The translations under genes and the position numbers were made by a program. Of a DNA stretch of 64,000 bases, positions 22,982 to 45,802 are shown piece after piece. Within the stretch, counting starts at the first letter, position 1. Every line of letters starts with the position of its first letter. The stretch is from an uncultured Clostridia bacterium (lineage in GTDB: Bacteria; Bacillota; Clostridia; Christensenellales; UBA1242), in the NCBI GenBank assembly GCA_944384375.1, contig CALWTE010000018.1, positions 726-64,725 on the forward strand. The letters are read 5' to 3'. The notes under the pieces were generated by a model. It had not been told where the DNA came from, did not search any database, and worked only from the letters and a program-made list of their open reading frames with translations.

Positions 22982-24118
22982 TTAAACAGTTTCAATATCT
23001 TCAAACAAATCGTCTTCTATATTGTCGTCAATTGTAGAATTAATTTCTTGTACGCGTTTGTCTTGTTCTTCTTTCTCGAGAGTAGATTCGCTCTTTACAT
23101 CAATCTTCCAACCAGTCAAACGAGCGGCAAGTCTAACATTGCAACCGTCTTTACCTATTGCAAGACTTAATTTATTGTCTGGAACTATTACCCTACTAGA
23201 TTTTGCTTCTTGATTGATTTCCACACTGACAACTTCGGCTGGGCTAAGCGCATTAGCAATATATTCAAAGATGTCGTCACTATATCTAATTACGTCAATT
23301 TTTTCGCCATTAATTTCTTCAATTACGGCATTAATTCTTGCACCCCTAGCACCTACACAAGCACCCACTGGGTCAAGATTAGCATCTTGAGAAAATACTG
23401 CCAATTTAGTCCTATTACCTGCTTCACGTGCAATTGATTTAATCTCAACTTCGCCACTGGTTAATTCTGGTACCTCTAATTCAAATAACTTTTGCACAAA
23501 GTTTGGAGTCGTACGGCTAACTTGAATTTCAGGTCCAAAAGGTGTTTCTTTTACGCGTTTGATAATTACTTTTACGCGAGAGCCAATTTCCAACTTTTCG
23601 TTTGGAATGACGTCTTTGTAATTTAGCACACCTTCTGCTTCTATACCACTTAATTCCACATAGAAATTGTTTGCATCGCGTCTGCGGATAATTGCTGTCG
23701 TGATTTGGTCACCCTTTGCGTCTAGTTCGGCAATTAAATTATTTCTTTCCGCTTCCCTTAATCTCTGCATAACGACTTGTTTTGCTGTTTGTGCGGCAAT
23801 TCTACCAAAACTCTTTGGAGTAACTTCTTCTGAAACGATATCGCCTACTTGATAACTAGATTTGATTTTTTTAGCGTCTTCTAGACTAATTTCTTTGTCC
23901 GAATCGTTCACTTCGTCTACTACTGTCTTGTACGCTAAAACCTTGATAGTTCCTTTCTCTGGGTTTAACTTAACGGTAGCGCTCCTTGCTTCGCCAAAGT
24001 TCTTTTTGTAAGCACTAGTTAAAGCGCTCTCCAAAGCGGAAATAAAGAACTCCTTGTTGATTTTTTTCTCTTGTTCTAATTGGTCTAATGCCAAAAAGAA
24101 ATCTTTGCTGTTAATCAT
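22982..24118 (-). CDS. nusA: Transcription termination/antitermination factor NusA
   Basis: 378 aa with an N-terminal domain, S1, two KH domains (GACVGARGARI, IGKDGCNVRLA) and an acidic tail. Confidence 0.95.
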   Translation of the reverse strand: MINSKDFFLALDQLEQEKKINKEFFISALESALTSAYKKNFGEARSATVKLNPEKGTIKVLAYKTVVDEVNDSDKEISLEDAKKIKSSYQVGDIVSEEVTPKSFGRIAAQTAKQVVMQRLREAERNNLIAELDAKGDQITTAIIRRRDANNFYVELSGIEAEGVLNYKDVIPNEKLEIGSRVKVIIKRVKETPFGPEIQVSRTTPNFVQKLFELEVPELTSGEVEIKSIAREAGNRTKLAVFSQDANLDPVGACVGARGARINAVIEEINGEKIDVIRYSDDIFEYIANALSPAEVVSVEINQEAKSSRVIVPDNKLSLAIGKDGCNVRLAARLTGWKIDVKSESTLEKEEQDKRVQEINSTIDDNIEDDLFEDIETV

Positions 24119-24160: not shown

Positions 24161-24182
24161 ATGAGTGGGCGACCCCACTCAT
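24161..24182 (-). promoter_or_regulatory. Strong hairpin in the nusA 5' leader (AUGAGUGGG-GUCG-CCCACUCAU) followed by AACUUUUAUAAU
   Basis: Perfect 9-bp stem read directly. It lies between the candidate promoter and the nusA RBS. Confidence 0.45.
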
Positions 24183-24194
24183 TTAGATAGAATT

Positions 24195-24223
24195 ATTATA
24201 TCATATAAAAATAAAAATATCAA
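24195..24223 (-). promoter_or_regulatory. Candidate sigma-A promoter of the nusA operon (TTGATA-17-TATAAT)
   Basis: Hexamers and spacing read on the minus strand. The -35 lies in the 3' arm of the upstream terminator. Confidence 0.55.
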
Positions 24224-31238: not shown

Positions 31239-31365
31239 TTTACTTTTTCCTCCTTAACTCGTTTTTAATCCGCCCACTTGCTTTAAAACTCCTTGACGCA
31301 ACCCCTACTAATTAGTAGTGGCAACGGTGTCAAAAATGGCAAATGGTGTGTATTTCAACTTGAAA

Positions 31366-31394
31366 AGTTTATCACAAAACGAAATAAAAAGCAA
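31366..31394 (-). promoter_or_regulatory. Candidate promoter of rpsB (TTGCTT-17-TGaTAAACT), implying a 5' UTR of about 125 nt
   Basis: Hexamers and an extended -10 TG read on the minus strand, with an AT-rich UP-like tract upstream. Confidence 0.4.
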
Positions 31395-31484
31395 GGCCAA
31401 ATACACAAAATTTTATAATAATTAATGATAATTTATATAAATCTATAAAAATTTATAGTAATTTTAAAAAATTTTATAAATAAG

Positions 31485-32623: not shown

Positions 32624-32758
32624 TTACATTTTTGCAACTTGTTGCTTGATTTTTTCTTTACCTTTATCAAGTGCATCACGTACAGGTTTACAAGTTTGTA
32701 CTAAAATCGCACCAGCAACAGCGCCTAAAATCATACCAACTAAAATACCATCGCACAT
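32624..32758 (-). CDS. Small (44 aa) membrane-anchored protein, YtxH-like in shape
   Basis: Below the 60-aa cut-off of the ORF track. ATG preceded by AAGGAGG. One TM (GILVGMILGAVAGAILV) followed by a Lys-rich helix. A terminator lies directly downstream. Confidence 0.5.
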   Translation of the reverse strand: MCDGILVGMILGAVAGAILVQTCKPVRDALDKGKEKIKQQVAKM

Positions 32759-32834
32759 AATTTTTGCCTCCTTATTAAATTCTAATTATAGTTTGTCTAA
32801 TTTTGAGAATTTAACAAGAGTAAAATTTTGGTAA

Positions 32835-33311
32835 TTAGAGAGTCCTCTCCATCTCGTCTGTTTTGTTATCAACCTTAGAGGTAACCGTTTTTTGCTCGGT
32901 ATTTGTATAAACTGAATTATTTATTTTCGCCGTTGCTACATAATCAACGTCGTTTTTGATATCCCACGAAATATCAAAAGATTTTATCAAATCTACTGGC
33001 AAATATTGTAAATCTATTTGTCTATATGTAAACATTCTATCAACACCATCTTGGTTAGTAAATTCGCCTTGTTTTTGCATAAAATGTTTATCAAATAAAT
33101 ATTTTGGCAAAGATAAAGCAAACCTTTCACAAAATGTTTCAATAGTATCATTATCTATACGCCTGTTATAGAGTTTATTTTGAAATTTTATTTCACTCCC
33201 AAAACTGCCTGCTATAAACTGAGATAAATCTTTGTAAATTTCCTTTTGTGATGCCATTTGTTTATGCGAAAATTCGGGTCTATCACTAATCGGTTTTTTG
33301 ATATTTTTCAT
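32835..33311 (-). CDS. Hypothetical protein (158 aa), no recognisable family
   Basis: Only long ORF here, on the same strand as its neighbours and 25 nt after the nifU stop. No motifs recognised. Confidence 0.55.
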   Translation of the reverse strand: MKNIKKPISDRPEFSHKQMASQKEIYKDLSQFIAGSFGSEIKFQNKLYNRRIDNDTIETFCERFALSLPKYLFDKHFMQKQGEFTNQDGVDRMFTYRQIDLQYLPVDLIKSFDISWDIKNDVDYVATAKINNSVYTNTEQKTVTSKVDNKTDEMERTL

Positions 33312-33741: not shown

Positions 33742-34920
33742 CTAATCCTCCTTACCTACTTGTGATTTTGTCATTGCTGAAATTTTACGTAATTTTTCTA
33801 CACATTCTACCAACTTACTTACTACGTAATCAATTTCTTCTTTTGTAATATCCTTACTTAATGAGAAACGTACTGCCCCTTGTGCCAAATCTGGAGCAAT
33901 GCCCATTGCTTGCAATACGTGGCTGGTTTCAACAGAGCCAGAAGAACAAGCAGAACCTGTACTTACAGCAATACCTTCTAAGTCAAGCATACACATTAAA
34001 CTTTCACCATCAACCATACCAAATGACAAGTTTACATTGTTTGGCAATCTCTGTATAGGGTGTCCGTTTAAATAAGTCATATCTATATTTTTAGTAACTT
34101 CTCTTATGAAATAGTCTCTCAAAGTACGCAATTTTTTGCTATTTGTGATAATATCACGGGTGTTAATTTCTACTGCCTTACCTAACCCCACAATACCAGC
34201 CACATTGCTAGTACCAGCACGCAAGCCAAATTCTTGCTCGCCACCATTCATAAATGGAGTAATCACTACGCCATTGTGTACATATAGTGCACCTACGCCC
34301 TTTGGCCCATTTAATTTATGTCCGCTAAGACTCAATGCATCAATACCCATTTCGTGAACATTTAGGTTAATTGCACCAACTGCTTGTGTTGCGTCAGTGT
34401 GGAAAATTACATTCTTTTCTTTTGCGATATTAGCAATTGCCTGTAAGTTTTGAATAGTCCCTACTTCGTTATTTGCTGCCATAATTGAAATTAAAATAGT
34501 GTCAGCAGATAAATAGTGAAGCAACTGGTCAATCCTAACCATTCCCATCTCATCTACGTCTAGATAAGTTACGCGGTAACCTTCTCTCTCTAACTTTTTA
34601 CAAGTCTCCAAAATACTAGGATGCTCAATTTTTGATGTAATTATGTGGTTACCTTTGTGGCGATTTGCTTTTGCTAAACCTGTGATTGCCCAGTTATTAG
34701 ATTCTGTAGCACCACTAGTAAAGTAAATTTCATTATCGTCACAGCCTAATGCTTTTGCAATACGGCTACGAGCAACATCAACATAGCGTTTTGCTTCTCT
34801 ACCGAAAGAATGCAAACTGTTTGGGTTACCAAAATCAGTAGTCAAAACTGGCATCATTTCAGTCAAAACTTCGCTATGAATAGGTGTGGTAGCAGCATTG
34901 TCCATATAAATTCTATTCAT
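33742..34920 (-). CDS. nifS: Cysteine desulfurase NifS/IscS (class V aminotransferase)
   Basis: PLP-Lys region SLSGHKLNGPKG and active-site Cys loop STGSACSSG. Confidence 0.9.
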   Translation of the reverse strand: MNRIYMDNAATTPIHSEVLTEMMPVLTTDFGNPNSLHSFGREAKRYVDVARSRIAKALGCDDNEIYFTSGATESNNWAITGLAKANRHKGNHIITSKIEHPSILETCKKLEREGYRVTYLDVDEMGMVRIDQLLHYLSADTILISIMAANNEVGTIQNLQAIANIAKEKNVIFHTDATQAVGAINLNVHEMGIDALSLSGHKLNGPKGVGALYVHNGVVITPFMNGGEQEFGLRAGTSNVAGIVGLGKAVEINTRDIITNSKKLRTLRDYFIREVTKNIDMTYLNGHPIQRLPNNVNLSFGMVDGESLMCMLDLEGIAVSTGSACSSGSVETSHVLQAMGIAPDLAQGAVRFSLSKDITKEEIDYVVSKLVECVEKLRKISAMTKSQVGKED

Positions 34921-34970
34921 ATTCCTACTCCTTTTTTAAAGACGATTTTATCTTCTTTCTTACTAATTTA

Positions 34971-34999
34971 ATTATACCATTTTATTGCTCTACTGTCAA
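34971..34999 (-). promoter_or_regulatory. Consensus sigma-A promoter of nifS-nifU (TTGACA-17-TGgTATAAT)
   Basis: Perfect -35 and -10 hexamers, 17-nt spacer and an extended -10 TG, about 50 nt upstream of the nifS ATG. Confidence 0.65.
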
Positions 35000-35044
35000 T
35001 ACCTTATTTACTTATAATCTTTTATCTATATTGCTTATATTTTC

Positions 35045-35117
35045 AAATAAAAAGGACAAGTCAAAAGACTTGTCTAACACTTGCGCTTTAACGCGAACAC
35101 AATTATTGTGCTTGTGT
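35045..35117 (-). ncRNA. Candidate small RNA C (about 70 nt) ending in an intrinsic terminator
   Basis: Starts downstream of promoter 35124-35152. Internal hairpins ACACAA/UUGUGU or CACAA/UUGUG, and GCG/CGC. Terminator GACAAGUC-UUUU-GACUUGUC followed by CUUUUUAUUUG. No ORF with an RBS. Confidence 0.45.
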
Positions 35118-35123
35118 ATAAAC

Positions 35124-35152
35124 ATTTTATACCATACAAACTAGAAAGTCAA
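35124..35152 (-). promoter_or_regulatory. Candidate sigma-A promoter (TTGACT-17-TAAAAT) of RNA C
   Basis: Hexamers and spacing read on the minus strand. Confidence 0.5.
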
Positions 35153-35209
35153 GTCTATACGGATAAAAACAAAAGCAGAAAGGAAAGATATAGTAAAAAT
35201 AATAAAAAA

Positions 35210-35279
35210 TGAAAATAAAAAAGAATTACAATTCCGGCCTTTCGCCTATGCCTTGCGTAGCAAGGTCAATGTAATTCTA
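35210..35279 (-). ncRNA. Candidate small RNA B (about 70 nt), a three-way-junction fold whose closing stem is the terminator
   Basis: P1 AGAAUUACA/UGUAAUUCU followed by UUUUUUAUUUU. P2 CCUUGC-UAC-GCAAGG. P3 GGC-GAAAG-GCC. The TSS predicted from promoter 35285-35313 falls at the base of P1. Confidence 0.5.
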
Positions 35280-35284
35280 AATTA

Positions 35285-35313
35285 ATGATACTAAATAGAA
35301 ATCAAAATGTCAA
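35285..35313 (-). promoter_or_regulatory. Candidate sigma-A promoter (TTGACA-17-TATCAT) of RNA B
   Basis: The -35 and the whole spacer lie inside a 25-nt perfect repeat shared with promoter A. Confidence 0.55.
35289..35313. repeat. 25-nt perfect direct repeat TACTAAATAGAAATCAAAATGTCAA, copy 1
   Basis: Identical to 35422-35446. The two copies are 133 bp apart. Confidence 0.9.
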
Positions 35314-35319
35314 GTACTT

Positions 35320-35411
35320 TAAAACAAAAAGGAAGTAAGAAAATCTTACTTCATCCGCACCATGCAGGTCGGAACTAAGCCGACAAACACATAAAGTGTT
35401 TTGCGTTGTGC
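35320..35411 (-). ncRNA. Candidate small RNA A (about 90 nt): a three-way-junction fold plus a separate terminator hairpin
   Basis: P1 CCGCAC/GUGCGG. P2 AAACAC-UUUAU-GUGUUU. P3 GUCGG-CUUAGUU-CCGAC. Then GAAGUAAGA-UUU-UCUUACUUC followed by CUUUUUGUUUU. Confidence 0.5.
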
Positions 35412-35417
35412 GGTGTT

Positions 35418-35446
35418 ATTGTACTAAATAGAAATCAAAATGTCAA
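35418..35446 (-). promoter_or_regulatory. Candidate sigma-A promoter (TTGACA-17-TACAAT) of RNA A
   Basis: Hexamers and spacing read on the minus strand, inside the 25-nt repeat. Confidence 0.55.
35422..35446. repeat. 25-nt perfect direct repeat, copy 2
   Basis: Identical to 35289-35313. Confidence 0.9.
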
Positions 35447-35461
35447 CATTTTTTAATTCTA

Positions 35462-35539
35462 TATAAATAAAAATAAAAGGCGTATGAAATGCACAACCAA
35501 AAGTGTCTAACTTTTGAGAATGCTCCCATTTTGCCTTTT
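35462..35539 (-). terminator. Long irregular hairpin plus U-tract after trxA
   Basis: Outer stem AAAAGGC/GCCUUUU enclosing CAAAAGU-UAGAC-ACUUUUG, followed by AUUUUUAUUU. Confidence 0.4.
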
Positions 35540-35545
35540 ACTAAA

Positions 35546-35863
35546 TTATTGAGAAATTTCGTCAATTAACTCTAAAAGTTGAGTTTTTTGTCTAAAACCA
35601 ACAGCACGTTTAACTTCTTCCCCACTTTTGAAAGCCACCAAAGTAGGTACGCTCATAATGTTGTATTTTTGCGCTATTTCCATACATTCGTCAATATCGC
35701 ATTTTGCAATTACTACCTTGTCTGTTTCATCTGCAACTTGCTCCAAAATTGGGCTCAACATTTTACAAGGACCACACCATGTAGCAAAGAAATCTACTAA
35801 TACTGGTTTATCTCCGTTAATAAGTTCTTCAAAATTGTTTGTTTCAATGTGTTCAATAGCCAT
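35546..35863 (-). CDS. trxA: Thioredoxin
   Basis: WCGPCK active site. 105 aa. Confidence 0.95.
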   Translation of the reverse strand: MAIEHIETNNFEELINGDKPVLVDFFATWCGPCKMLSPILEQVADETDKVVIAKCDIDECMEIAQKYNIMSVPTLVAFKSGEEVKRAVGFRQKTQLLELIDEISQ

Positions 35864-45448: not shown

Positions 45449-45561
45449 ATTAAACTCCTTAAACATATATTTTAACAACTTTATTGATTTTTGGCAATTA
45501 AATTTATATATAAGTTTTTATCATAAAACAAAGTATTTTTACTAAAAAAAGCATTAAAGCC

Positions 45562-45590
45562 TTGACTTTTGCATAAAAATATGGCAAAAT
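45562..45590 (+). promoter_or_regulatory. Candidate promoter of rpsU (TTGACT-17-CAAAAT)
   Basis: Hexamers and spacing read on the plus strand. The -10 is weak. Confidence 0.35.
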
Positions 45591-45625
45591 TAACTCAAAT
45601 TTTAACGCTAAGGTGGTGAGAAAAG

Positions 45626-45802
45626 ATGACAATGGTAGTTGTAGGCAAAGATGAATCTTTGGACAGCGCTTTGAAACGTTTTAAACGTAAGTGCCAAAAA
45701 GATGGTATCATCGGCGATTTACGCAAACACGAAGCATACGAAAAGCCTAGCGTTAAGCGTAAAAGAAAAAGCGAAGCTGCACGTAAACGCAACCGCAAGT
45801 AG
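45626..45802 (+). CDS. rpsU: 30S ribosomal protein S21
   Basis: 58 aa, not in the ORF track because it is under 60 aa: [70 protein letters not shown]. The 67-aa minus-strand track ORF here is its antisense. Confidence 0.9.

Follow-up and report, generated by a model that had tools for sequence, protein, structure and literature searches.

The 625-bp gap between trxA and nifS examined here lies in a 64,000-nt stretch of contig CALWTE010000018.1, from an uncultured Clostridia bacterium (GCA_944384375.1); this whole stretch is the window to which all positions refer. Read on the minus strand, from the trxA stop codon at 35546 to the nifS start codon at 34920, the gap contains a trxA hairpin terminator, three units that we call A, B, and C, and the nifS promoter. 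The flanking synteny is topA-trmFO-hslV-hslU-hisS-trxA-(gap)-nifS-nifU-...-ruvX-rpsB-tsf, and by domain content the adjacent genes encode a thioredoxin (PF00085), an Aminotran_5 cysteine desulfurase, and a NifU_N protein. An earlier note on this DNA had described three consecutive minus-strand promoter/RNA/terminator units, and we confirm this three-unit tandem cluster, every described element being found in its place (Table 1). The reading given there, that the units may form a tandem cluster of independently transcribed structured small RNAs, is supported by the comparisons below.

The three units have the same layout: a near-consensus sigma-70 promoter leads into a G+C-rich body with a three-way-junction fold, and an intrinsic terminator closes the unit. 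The G+C content of the body is 50% in A, 44% in B, and 39% in C, against 16–24% in the promoters and spacers and 34% in the whole window, so the reported enrichment over the flanks holds. There are 31 promoter matches of at least 10/12 on the minus strand of the window, about 1 per 2 kb, and 4 of these fall inside 480 bp here; a promoter followed within 220 nt by a clean terminator is rare elsewhere in the window. The folds including terminators have z-scores of -4.85 (A), -4.15 (B), and -4.51 (C), with 0 of 200 shuffles as stable, while the bodies alone score -3.5 for A and just -1.2 for C. Minimum-free-energy folds reproduce the three-way junctions that had been drawn by hand for A and B. 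The terminator that had been claimed for every unit is a separate hairpin in A and C, but B has no such hairpin, its P1 stem and a following U6 serving instead. Predicted starts, about 7 nt past the -10 hexamer, coincide in each unit with the first base of P1 or lie within about 2 nt of it, and unpaired stretches in these closed junctions are never longer than 7 nt.

Table 1. Features of the trxA–nifS gap, all on the minus strand, in order of transcription
Feature	Position	Description
trxA 3' untranslated region (UTR)	35465..35545	Long imperfect hairpin terminator AGUAAAAGGC...GCCUUUUAUU + U-run; upstream array boundary
A promoter	35446-35418	TTGACA-17-TACAAT; 11/12 consensus matches
A RNA body	35353..35414	Three-way junction; minimum-free-energy and centroid folds identical
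A P1	35413-35408 with 35360-35355	CCGCAC with GUGCGG; P1b, GCA with UGC
A P2	35401-35396 with 35390-35385	AAACAC with GUGUUU
A P3	35384-35380 with 35372-35368	GUCGG with CCGAC; loop CUUAGUU, 7 nt
A terminator	35322..35352	Intrinsic; 9-bp stem, 3-nt loop, then CUUUUUGUUUU
A terminator hairpin	35352-35332	GAAGTAAGA-TTT-TCTTACTTC + CTTTTTGTTT
B promoter	35313-35285	TTGACA-17-TATCAT; 11/12 matches
B RNA	35213..35278	Three-way junction whose closing stem is the terminator; fold and covariation
B P1	35278-35270 with 35230-35222	AGAAUUACA with UGUAAUUCU; also terminator stem
B P2	35265-35260 with 35256-35251	CCUUGC with GCAAGG
B P3	35246-35244 with 35238-35236	GGC with GCC; invariant GAAAG loop
B U-run	from 35221	U6 directly after P1
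B–C spacer	35172..35215 (approximate)	T-rich, ~44 nt; strain-variable
C promoter	35152-35124	TTGACT-17-TAAAAT; 10/12 matches
C RNA body	35075..35118	Small three-way junction; fold
C P1	35117-35114 with 35080-35077	ACAC with GUGU
C P2	35112-35106 with 35102-35096
C P3	35094-35091 with 35086-35083
C terminator	35045..35074	Intrinsic; 8-bp stem, 4-nt loop, then CUUUUUAUUU
C terminator hairpin	35074-35055	GACAAGTC-TTTT-GACTTGTC + CTTTTTATTT
nifS promoter	34999-34971	TTGACA-17-TGgTATAAT; 12/12 with extended TG; downstream boundary, outside array

The A and B promoters are identical over their first 25 nt (A copy: 35446-35422). Across the promoters of A, B, and the related units B1, B2, and D of other strains, the 17-nt spacers have 12–17/17 positions in common, and the -35 and -10 hexamers are retained with the spacer from unit to unit; the conserved spacer reads TTTTGATTT-N-AT-NN-AG. 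Unit spacers match that of the nifS promoter at just 4–6/17 positions for A, B, C, B1, B2, and D (4/17 for B itself) and at 7–8/17 for two degraded B copies, and we therefore rejected the idea that the unit promoters are copies of the nifS promoter. Promoter spacers are ordinarily free to vary, so a shared one suggests either that the units have a common operator and are therefore co-regulated, or that the recombination shuffling them has also homogenised their spacers.

Structural constraint on unit B and the folds of A, C, and D

Structural constraint is seen in the B-type units. Paralogues share 68–79% mutual identity, whereas identity in the flanking coding DNA does not drop below 92%, the most distant lineage included; paralogues so much more diverged than the locus carrying them suggest either very fast evolution or import from a reservoir elsewhere. 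In an alignment of ten variants (also run as a seven-sequence version), 94.7% of cells in stems P1–P3 form standard pairs, and both sides have changed in 6 of the 17 pairs, across all three stems. Examples include A-U to G-C in P1, C-G to U-A and G-C to A-U in P2, and G-C to A-U in P3. When the 3' partners are slid by 1–3 columns, pairing falls to 30–46% and only 0–1 double-changed pairs are left. The stems that the earlier note had offered for covariation analysis thus show compensatory changes among paralogues in B. No member of the family departs from GAAAG in the loop or from SGAA and AU at the junction, and these conserved unpaired segments are at most 5 nt long. The B terminator stem, 8–9 bp with just 2 G-C pairs, encloses a junction.

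The window copy scores 96.3 bits with the B covariance model (R1), which finds no further copy in the 0.74 Mb of the window and related loci. Variants B2 and B3 carry an additional hairpin (P2b) inserted at the junction. B3 and the B-type unit of L188 (related loci are given L numbers) are recombinant chimeras, and P1 of B3 holds an A.C mismatch. In B1', the -10 is degraded to TATTTC and a P3 pair is broken, so that it looks like a decaying copy beside intact ones. The spacer between B and C is present in the window, L001, and L010 (alignment A1) and in L005 (unaligned contig), and absent from L003 and L009 (alignment A1) and from L168.

Unit A is nearly invariant, with outer P1 pairs that read CC, UU, or GU against GG. 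Its fold recurs in the type II and L188 variants, its promoter is kept in all A-bearing strains, and its terminator is 100% identical in L188. The C promoter is 94% identical in L188, and all three substitutions between the window C and that of L188 lie at unpaired positions. In other strains the slot of C, the last in the array, is filled by unit D; whichever is present, C or D, always stands about 55 nt upstream of the nifS -35 hexamer. C and D have the 5' end AUACACAA and P1 (ACAC/GUGU) in common, while P2 is wholly different and P3 is longer in D. A MAFFT alignment of C with D is not structurally meaningful, so their kinship rests on independent folds.

The trxA hairpin that bounds the array is also structured (~75 nt, fold z = -5.2), and its fold is kept in L188 despite just 78% identity. 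The orthologous terminator of the sister lineages L185 and L189 is a short hairpin, AAAAGACAUUGAAAAAUGCCUUUU, with the base AAAAGAC...GCCUUUU; with the base unchanged, about 45 nt have thus been added inside the loop of the terminator in this lineage. Additional hairpins turn up repeatedly within existing loops or junctions at this locus, namely as P2b in B2 and B3, as P3 of D compared with C, and in the trxA terminator loop (L007 1733-1822; L167 and L198 for B3; L007 2006-2062 for D), and there may be a lineage-specific tendency to expand hairpins. We also considered whether B P1 descends from the trxA terminator of relatives, as L013 and L014 have similar stems (GAATTAT...TAATTC). This was dropped because the closest sisters, L185 and L189, have the AAAGAC-type terminator, the orthologue of the trxA hairpin in the window.

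Distribution and strain variation

Relatives were stepped through by their TrxA homologues. The nearest species-representative genomes are uncultured Clostridia or Christensenella-labelled metagenome-assembled genomes (MAGs), with NifS at most 86% identical. No unit is present in 15 related species, where the gap consists of a simple trxA terminator and a TTGACA-17-TGnTATAAT nifS promoter, or in lineages whose TrxA is 89%, 83%, and 73% identical, with gaps of 152–206 bp. L188 (TrxA 93%) has an array with one A-type, one B-type, and one C-type unit. Conservation in relatives, to which the earlier note had looked, is thus found in the lineage(s) with TrxA at least 93% identical and is absent where TrxA is at most 89% identical. 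Confined to one lineage and set between an ancestral terminator and an ancestral promoter, the array is a recent lineage-specific insertion.

Among contigs with the same TrxA, NifS, or NifU, or with TrxA 98–99% identical, the gap varies from 532 to 776 bp. The window arrangement, A-B-C, is found in L001 and L010, and with the 44-bp spacer deleted in L003, L009, and L172, while L167 and L198 have A-B3-C. Three contigs, L007, L174, and the NCBI MAG GCA_949300495.1 (L192), have B1-B2-A-D. L004 has B2-A-D, with B2 abutting the trxA stop codon; L194 has B1'-B2'-C, without A; and in L008, B1 is fused straight to the C promoter. Several arrangements are seen again in independent samples. The junctions always lie within the shared terminator tails (TTTTTGTTTT...) and promoters, which argues for unequal recombination. 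The promoter-less B2-type unit of L004 (6305-6420; CAATAATTTTTTTGGAATTACA...) comes from a single sample; directly after the stop codon, it would act as both terminator and 3' UTR of trxA. The arrangement may reflect either a true deletion or an error of assembly.

The units do not behave as dispersed repeats of the MITE, REP, or BOX kind, as neither the window nor about 0.7 Mb of related loci contains a further copy. An origin from phages or plasmids is also unsupported. Viral contigs were scanned with the promoter motif, a gapped B pattern, a 17-mer from A P3, and a B 15-mer; the A 17-mer gave 2 chance matches in coding regions, and the B 15-mer matched 26 loci, none passing R1. Searches by blastn of plasmid and phage collections returned nothing relevant. 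A metagenome scan with the 25-nt promoter pattern gave 72 single, unrelated, AT-rich matches, the collection evidently lacking this species.

Known families and comparable systems

The earlier note had recognised no known RNA family, and this stands. There is no gathering-level match to Rfam 15 in the whole window, and in E-value mode the region 34900-35600 and the L007 array gave sub-threshold noise only, the best match (tsr26, 27.9 bits against a gathering threshold of 141) being terminator-driven. ARAGORN likewise finds no tRNA or tmRNA genes in the window. On these grounds we rejected membership in a known RNA family; literature searches returned no description of this locus. As an observation on the window at large (1-64000), Rfam gathering-level matches and tRNAs are both absent despite the presence of hisS, rpsB, and tsf.

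Several known classes of element were considered and set aside. A cis-acting riboswitch or attenuator leader is not indicated, as each unit is followed by the next promoter and nifS has its own 12/12 promoter; the same argument had been made before, and it is strengthened by the array-less relatives, all of which keep the nifS promoter, with its extended TG, in much the same place shortly before the nifS start, so that nifS is independent of the units. A riboswitch with a broadly conserved aptamer is likewise contradicted by the absence of units from the 15 related species and the lineages with TrxA at 73–89%. A type I toxin-antitoxin locus was rejected because, in the open reading frame (ORF) list and a Shine-Dalgarno scan, neither strand shows a small hydrophobic ORF preceded by a ribosome-binding site. 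The scan yields just a plus-strand ORF of 24 aa that starts with TTG and arises from the C terminator sequence; the transcribed strand carries no Shine-Dalgarno ORF, as previously stated. The sole exact repeat is the 25-nt promoter segment and the neighbours are trxA and nifS/nifU, so a type III toxin-antitoxin or CRISPR-like array was also rejected. The hammerhead core has CUGANGA ... GAAA ... UH at its junction. The junction nucleotides here (UUGA, CAUA, and SGAAU in B; AAC and AUG in A) do not fit it by inspection, and there is no Rfam ribozyme match, so hammerhead and other small self-cleaving ribozymes were rejected.

Tandem sibling small-RNA clusters include LhrC1-4 of Listeria monocytogenes, the CiaR-dependent csRNAs of Streptococcus, PrrF1/PrrF2 of Pseudomonas, and Qrr of Vibrio. 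As in these, the genes of the array are short, intergenic, and head-to-tail, and each copy has, in silico, its own promoter and Rho-independent terminator (in B by way of P1 and U6). Related promoters suggest shared control, there are paralogous copies (B1/B2, B and B3), and copy number varies between strains. The known clusters are paralogues of one family with single-stranded seeds, such as the UCCC motifs of LhrC. In contrast, at least three bodies unrelated in sequence (A, B, and C/D) share just their expression signals here, they fold as closed three-way junctions without a shared single-stranded seed or any conserved unpaired run of at least 7 nt, and Rfam scans reveal no homology to those families. 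When the 61 translation-initiation regions of the window were put through a crude duplex screen, neither nifS nor trxA stood out. A 12-nt stretch of A is 83% complementary to the trxA 3' UTR, which we judged to be chance because the substitution in L188 is not compensated.

The units also resemble small aptamers built on a three-way junction, such as the purine riboswitch, and trans-acting RNAs that contain a riboswitch, such as EutX/Rli55 and SreA, in having a similar size (45–65 nt), a P1 formed from the 5' and 3' ends, two hairpins projecting from a junction that holds conserved nucleotides, and a terminator directly after. They differ in that each unit is followed by a new promoter rather than a regulated gene, and in being confined to one lineage, without an Rfam match or an apparent platform for alternative pairing. 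With Sib/Ibs, Ldr/Rdl, and AapA/IsoA they have in common tandem, strain-variable, structured RNAs with strong promoters and terminators in conserved intergenic regions; the toxin gene that defines those type I loci, a small hydrophobic ORF with its ribosome-binding site, is absent from both strands here. As terminators, A and C are textbook hairpins with U-runs, and P1 of B with its U6 follows the same logic, except that its stem encloses a 40–70-nt junction with two or three conserved hairpins.

A few other features of the window are worth recording. Upstream of rpsB, the minus strand at 31250-31400 is G+C-rich and apparently structured (...CACACCATTTGCCATTTTTGACACCGTTGCCACTACTAATTAGTAGGGGTTGCGTCAAGGAG...); no Rfam model recognises it, and it may be a ribosomal-protein S2 leader. 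At 24161-24223 (minus), a TTGATA-17-TATAAT promoter has a strong hairpin rich in G+C (ATGAGTGGGGTCGCCCACTCAT) 34 nt after it; the two precede the gene at 22982-24118 and could represent a leader or attenuator. An unlisted short ORF at 45560-45800 (plus), among genes almost all on the minus strand, encodes a very basic protein (...KRFKRK...) that resembles ribosomal protein S21. Downstream of nifU lie a conserved 158-aa protein without a Pfam match (32835-33311, minus) and a 44-aa predicted membrane peptide (32625-32760, minus), both kept in synteny across all strains and the 73% lineage (L190).

Possible roles of the array

We favour, at somewhat better than even chances, the reading that the small-RNA genes in the gap are autonomous, form a recombining tandem family, and act in trans by means of their folded cores. 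Each unit would use a strong housekeeping-type promoter to produce an RNA of 45–65 nt ending at an intrinsic terminator; folded as a compact three-way junction, this RNA would have its 5' end buried in the closing helix. As the units have one promoter type and one type of terminator tail in common, recombination at these shared segments would shuffle, duplicate, and delete them, so that strains differ in unit content, while the bodies A, B, and C/D stay distinct and their folds are kept. Action in trans would most likely proceed by way of the folded core, which could contact a binding protein, a small ligand, or another RNA through its loops. The lack of unpaired stretches longer than 7 nt favours this over seed pairing, and a long single-stranded antisense seed is unlikely, as none is present. 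Accepted as transcribed, A, B, and C/D would be new RNA families belonging to a known kind of system, that of tandem small-RNA genes; for one of them, B, comparative evidence supports the structure well.

Several observations weigh against this reading. The array is restricted to one narrow lineage, and the B covariation consequently comes from paralogues and recombinants of one species and represents few independent events. Unit A shows no true covariation and has one uncompensated P2 change in L188; in two of the three variants (z = -0.6 and -1.2) its body alone folds no more stably than shuffled sequences, and its absence from the L194 and L008 haplotypes makes it dispensable. Between lineages the A and C bodies are 95% and 93% conserved, not clearly more than the coding background of 92.5–93.3%. 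Where a haplotype comes from one sample only, metagenome assembly could have joined it chimerically across the repeated promoters.

Some of these points suit the view that the units are neutral by-products of a recombination-prone gap that creates, shuffles, and loses orphan units, any RNAs having no role. The array is missing from all sister lineages and thus dispensable for this group, units including A are gained and lost between strains, B3 and the L188 B-type unit are chimeric and P1 of B3 is mismatched, B1' resembles a decaying copy, and the conservation of the A and C bodies does not clearly exceed background. This view does not readily explain the compensatory changes in all three B stems, with pairing of about 95% despite about 30% divergence, or the C/D architecture kept after total turnover of P2. 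Drift is also not expected to yield G+C-rich structured bodies in a spacer of 16–24% GC, and the promoter hexamers are maintained. We consider it unlikely, though it survives best among the alternatives.

The units might otherwise act in cis on nifSU, either through leaky or conditional terminators that feed read-through, the AU-rich P1 terminator of B being the likeliest leaky element, or by insulating the nifS promoter from trxA transcription. Every unit is directed toward nifS, C or D always keeps its distance from the nifS -35 hexamer, two G-C pairs around a junction are not a classic efficient terminator design, and the L004 unit directly after the trxA stop codon would serve as the trxA terminator. 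Yet nifS has a 12/12 extended -10 promoter that is kept in every relative without the array, the terminators of A and C are strong and canonical, unit content varies among strains with identical NifS, and no convincing alternative antiterminator pairing was found by inspection. Such a role is improbable.

A more speculative idea, to which we assign a quite low probability, is that the locus is an RNA cassette array in which the expression modules are homogenised by recombination while the bodies diversify under selection, or else a site of recent small-RNA birth and turnover. Compensated B paralogues about 30% diverged within flanks at least 92% identical, together with reshuffling, are typical of conflict systems, and the RNAs could thus be aptamer-like decoys or triggers against partners that evolve fast, such as proteins of phages or mobile elements. 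If so, this would be an RNA-only defence or counter-defence locus.

Last, the units could be orphan riboswitch-like aptamers; in B, a ligand bound at the junction would stabilise P1 and so set the termination and abundance of the RNA itself. The small closed junction with conserved GAAAG, SGAA, and AU and variable peripheral helices would fit, as would the double use of P1 as terminator. Riboswitch classes are phylogenetically broad and occur in the leaders of related genes, whereas this RNA occurs in a single lineage, lacks a gene of its own downstream, and matches no Rfam aptamer; common descent in the recent past may be all that lies behind the conserved nucleotides. We regard this as very improbable, the least probable of the readings considered.

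Because of the narrow distribution and the lack of a functional lead, the practical value of the array of autonomous small-RNA genes that we favour is limited. If the units are transcribed, the locus would nevertheless add at least three unrecognised families of structured small RNAs from an uncultured, Christensenellales-like lineage of gut Clostridia. It would also offer a rare population-level view of the duplication, recombination, and loss of small-RNA genes with their folds kept, and the B family would contribute an uncommon design in which the terminator stem closes a conserved three-way junction.

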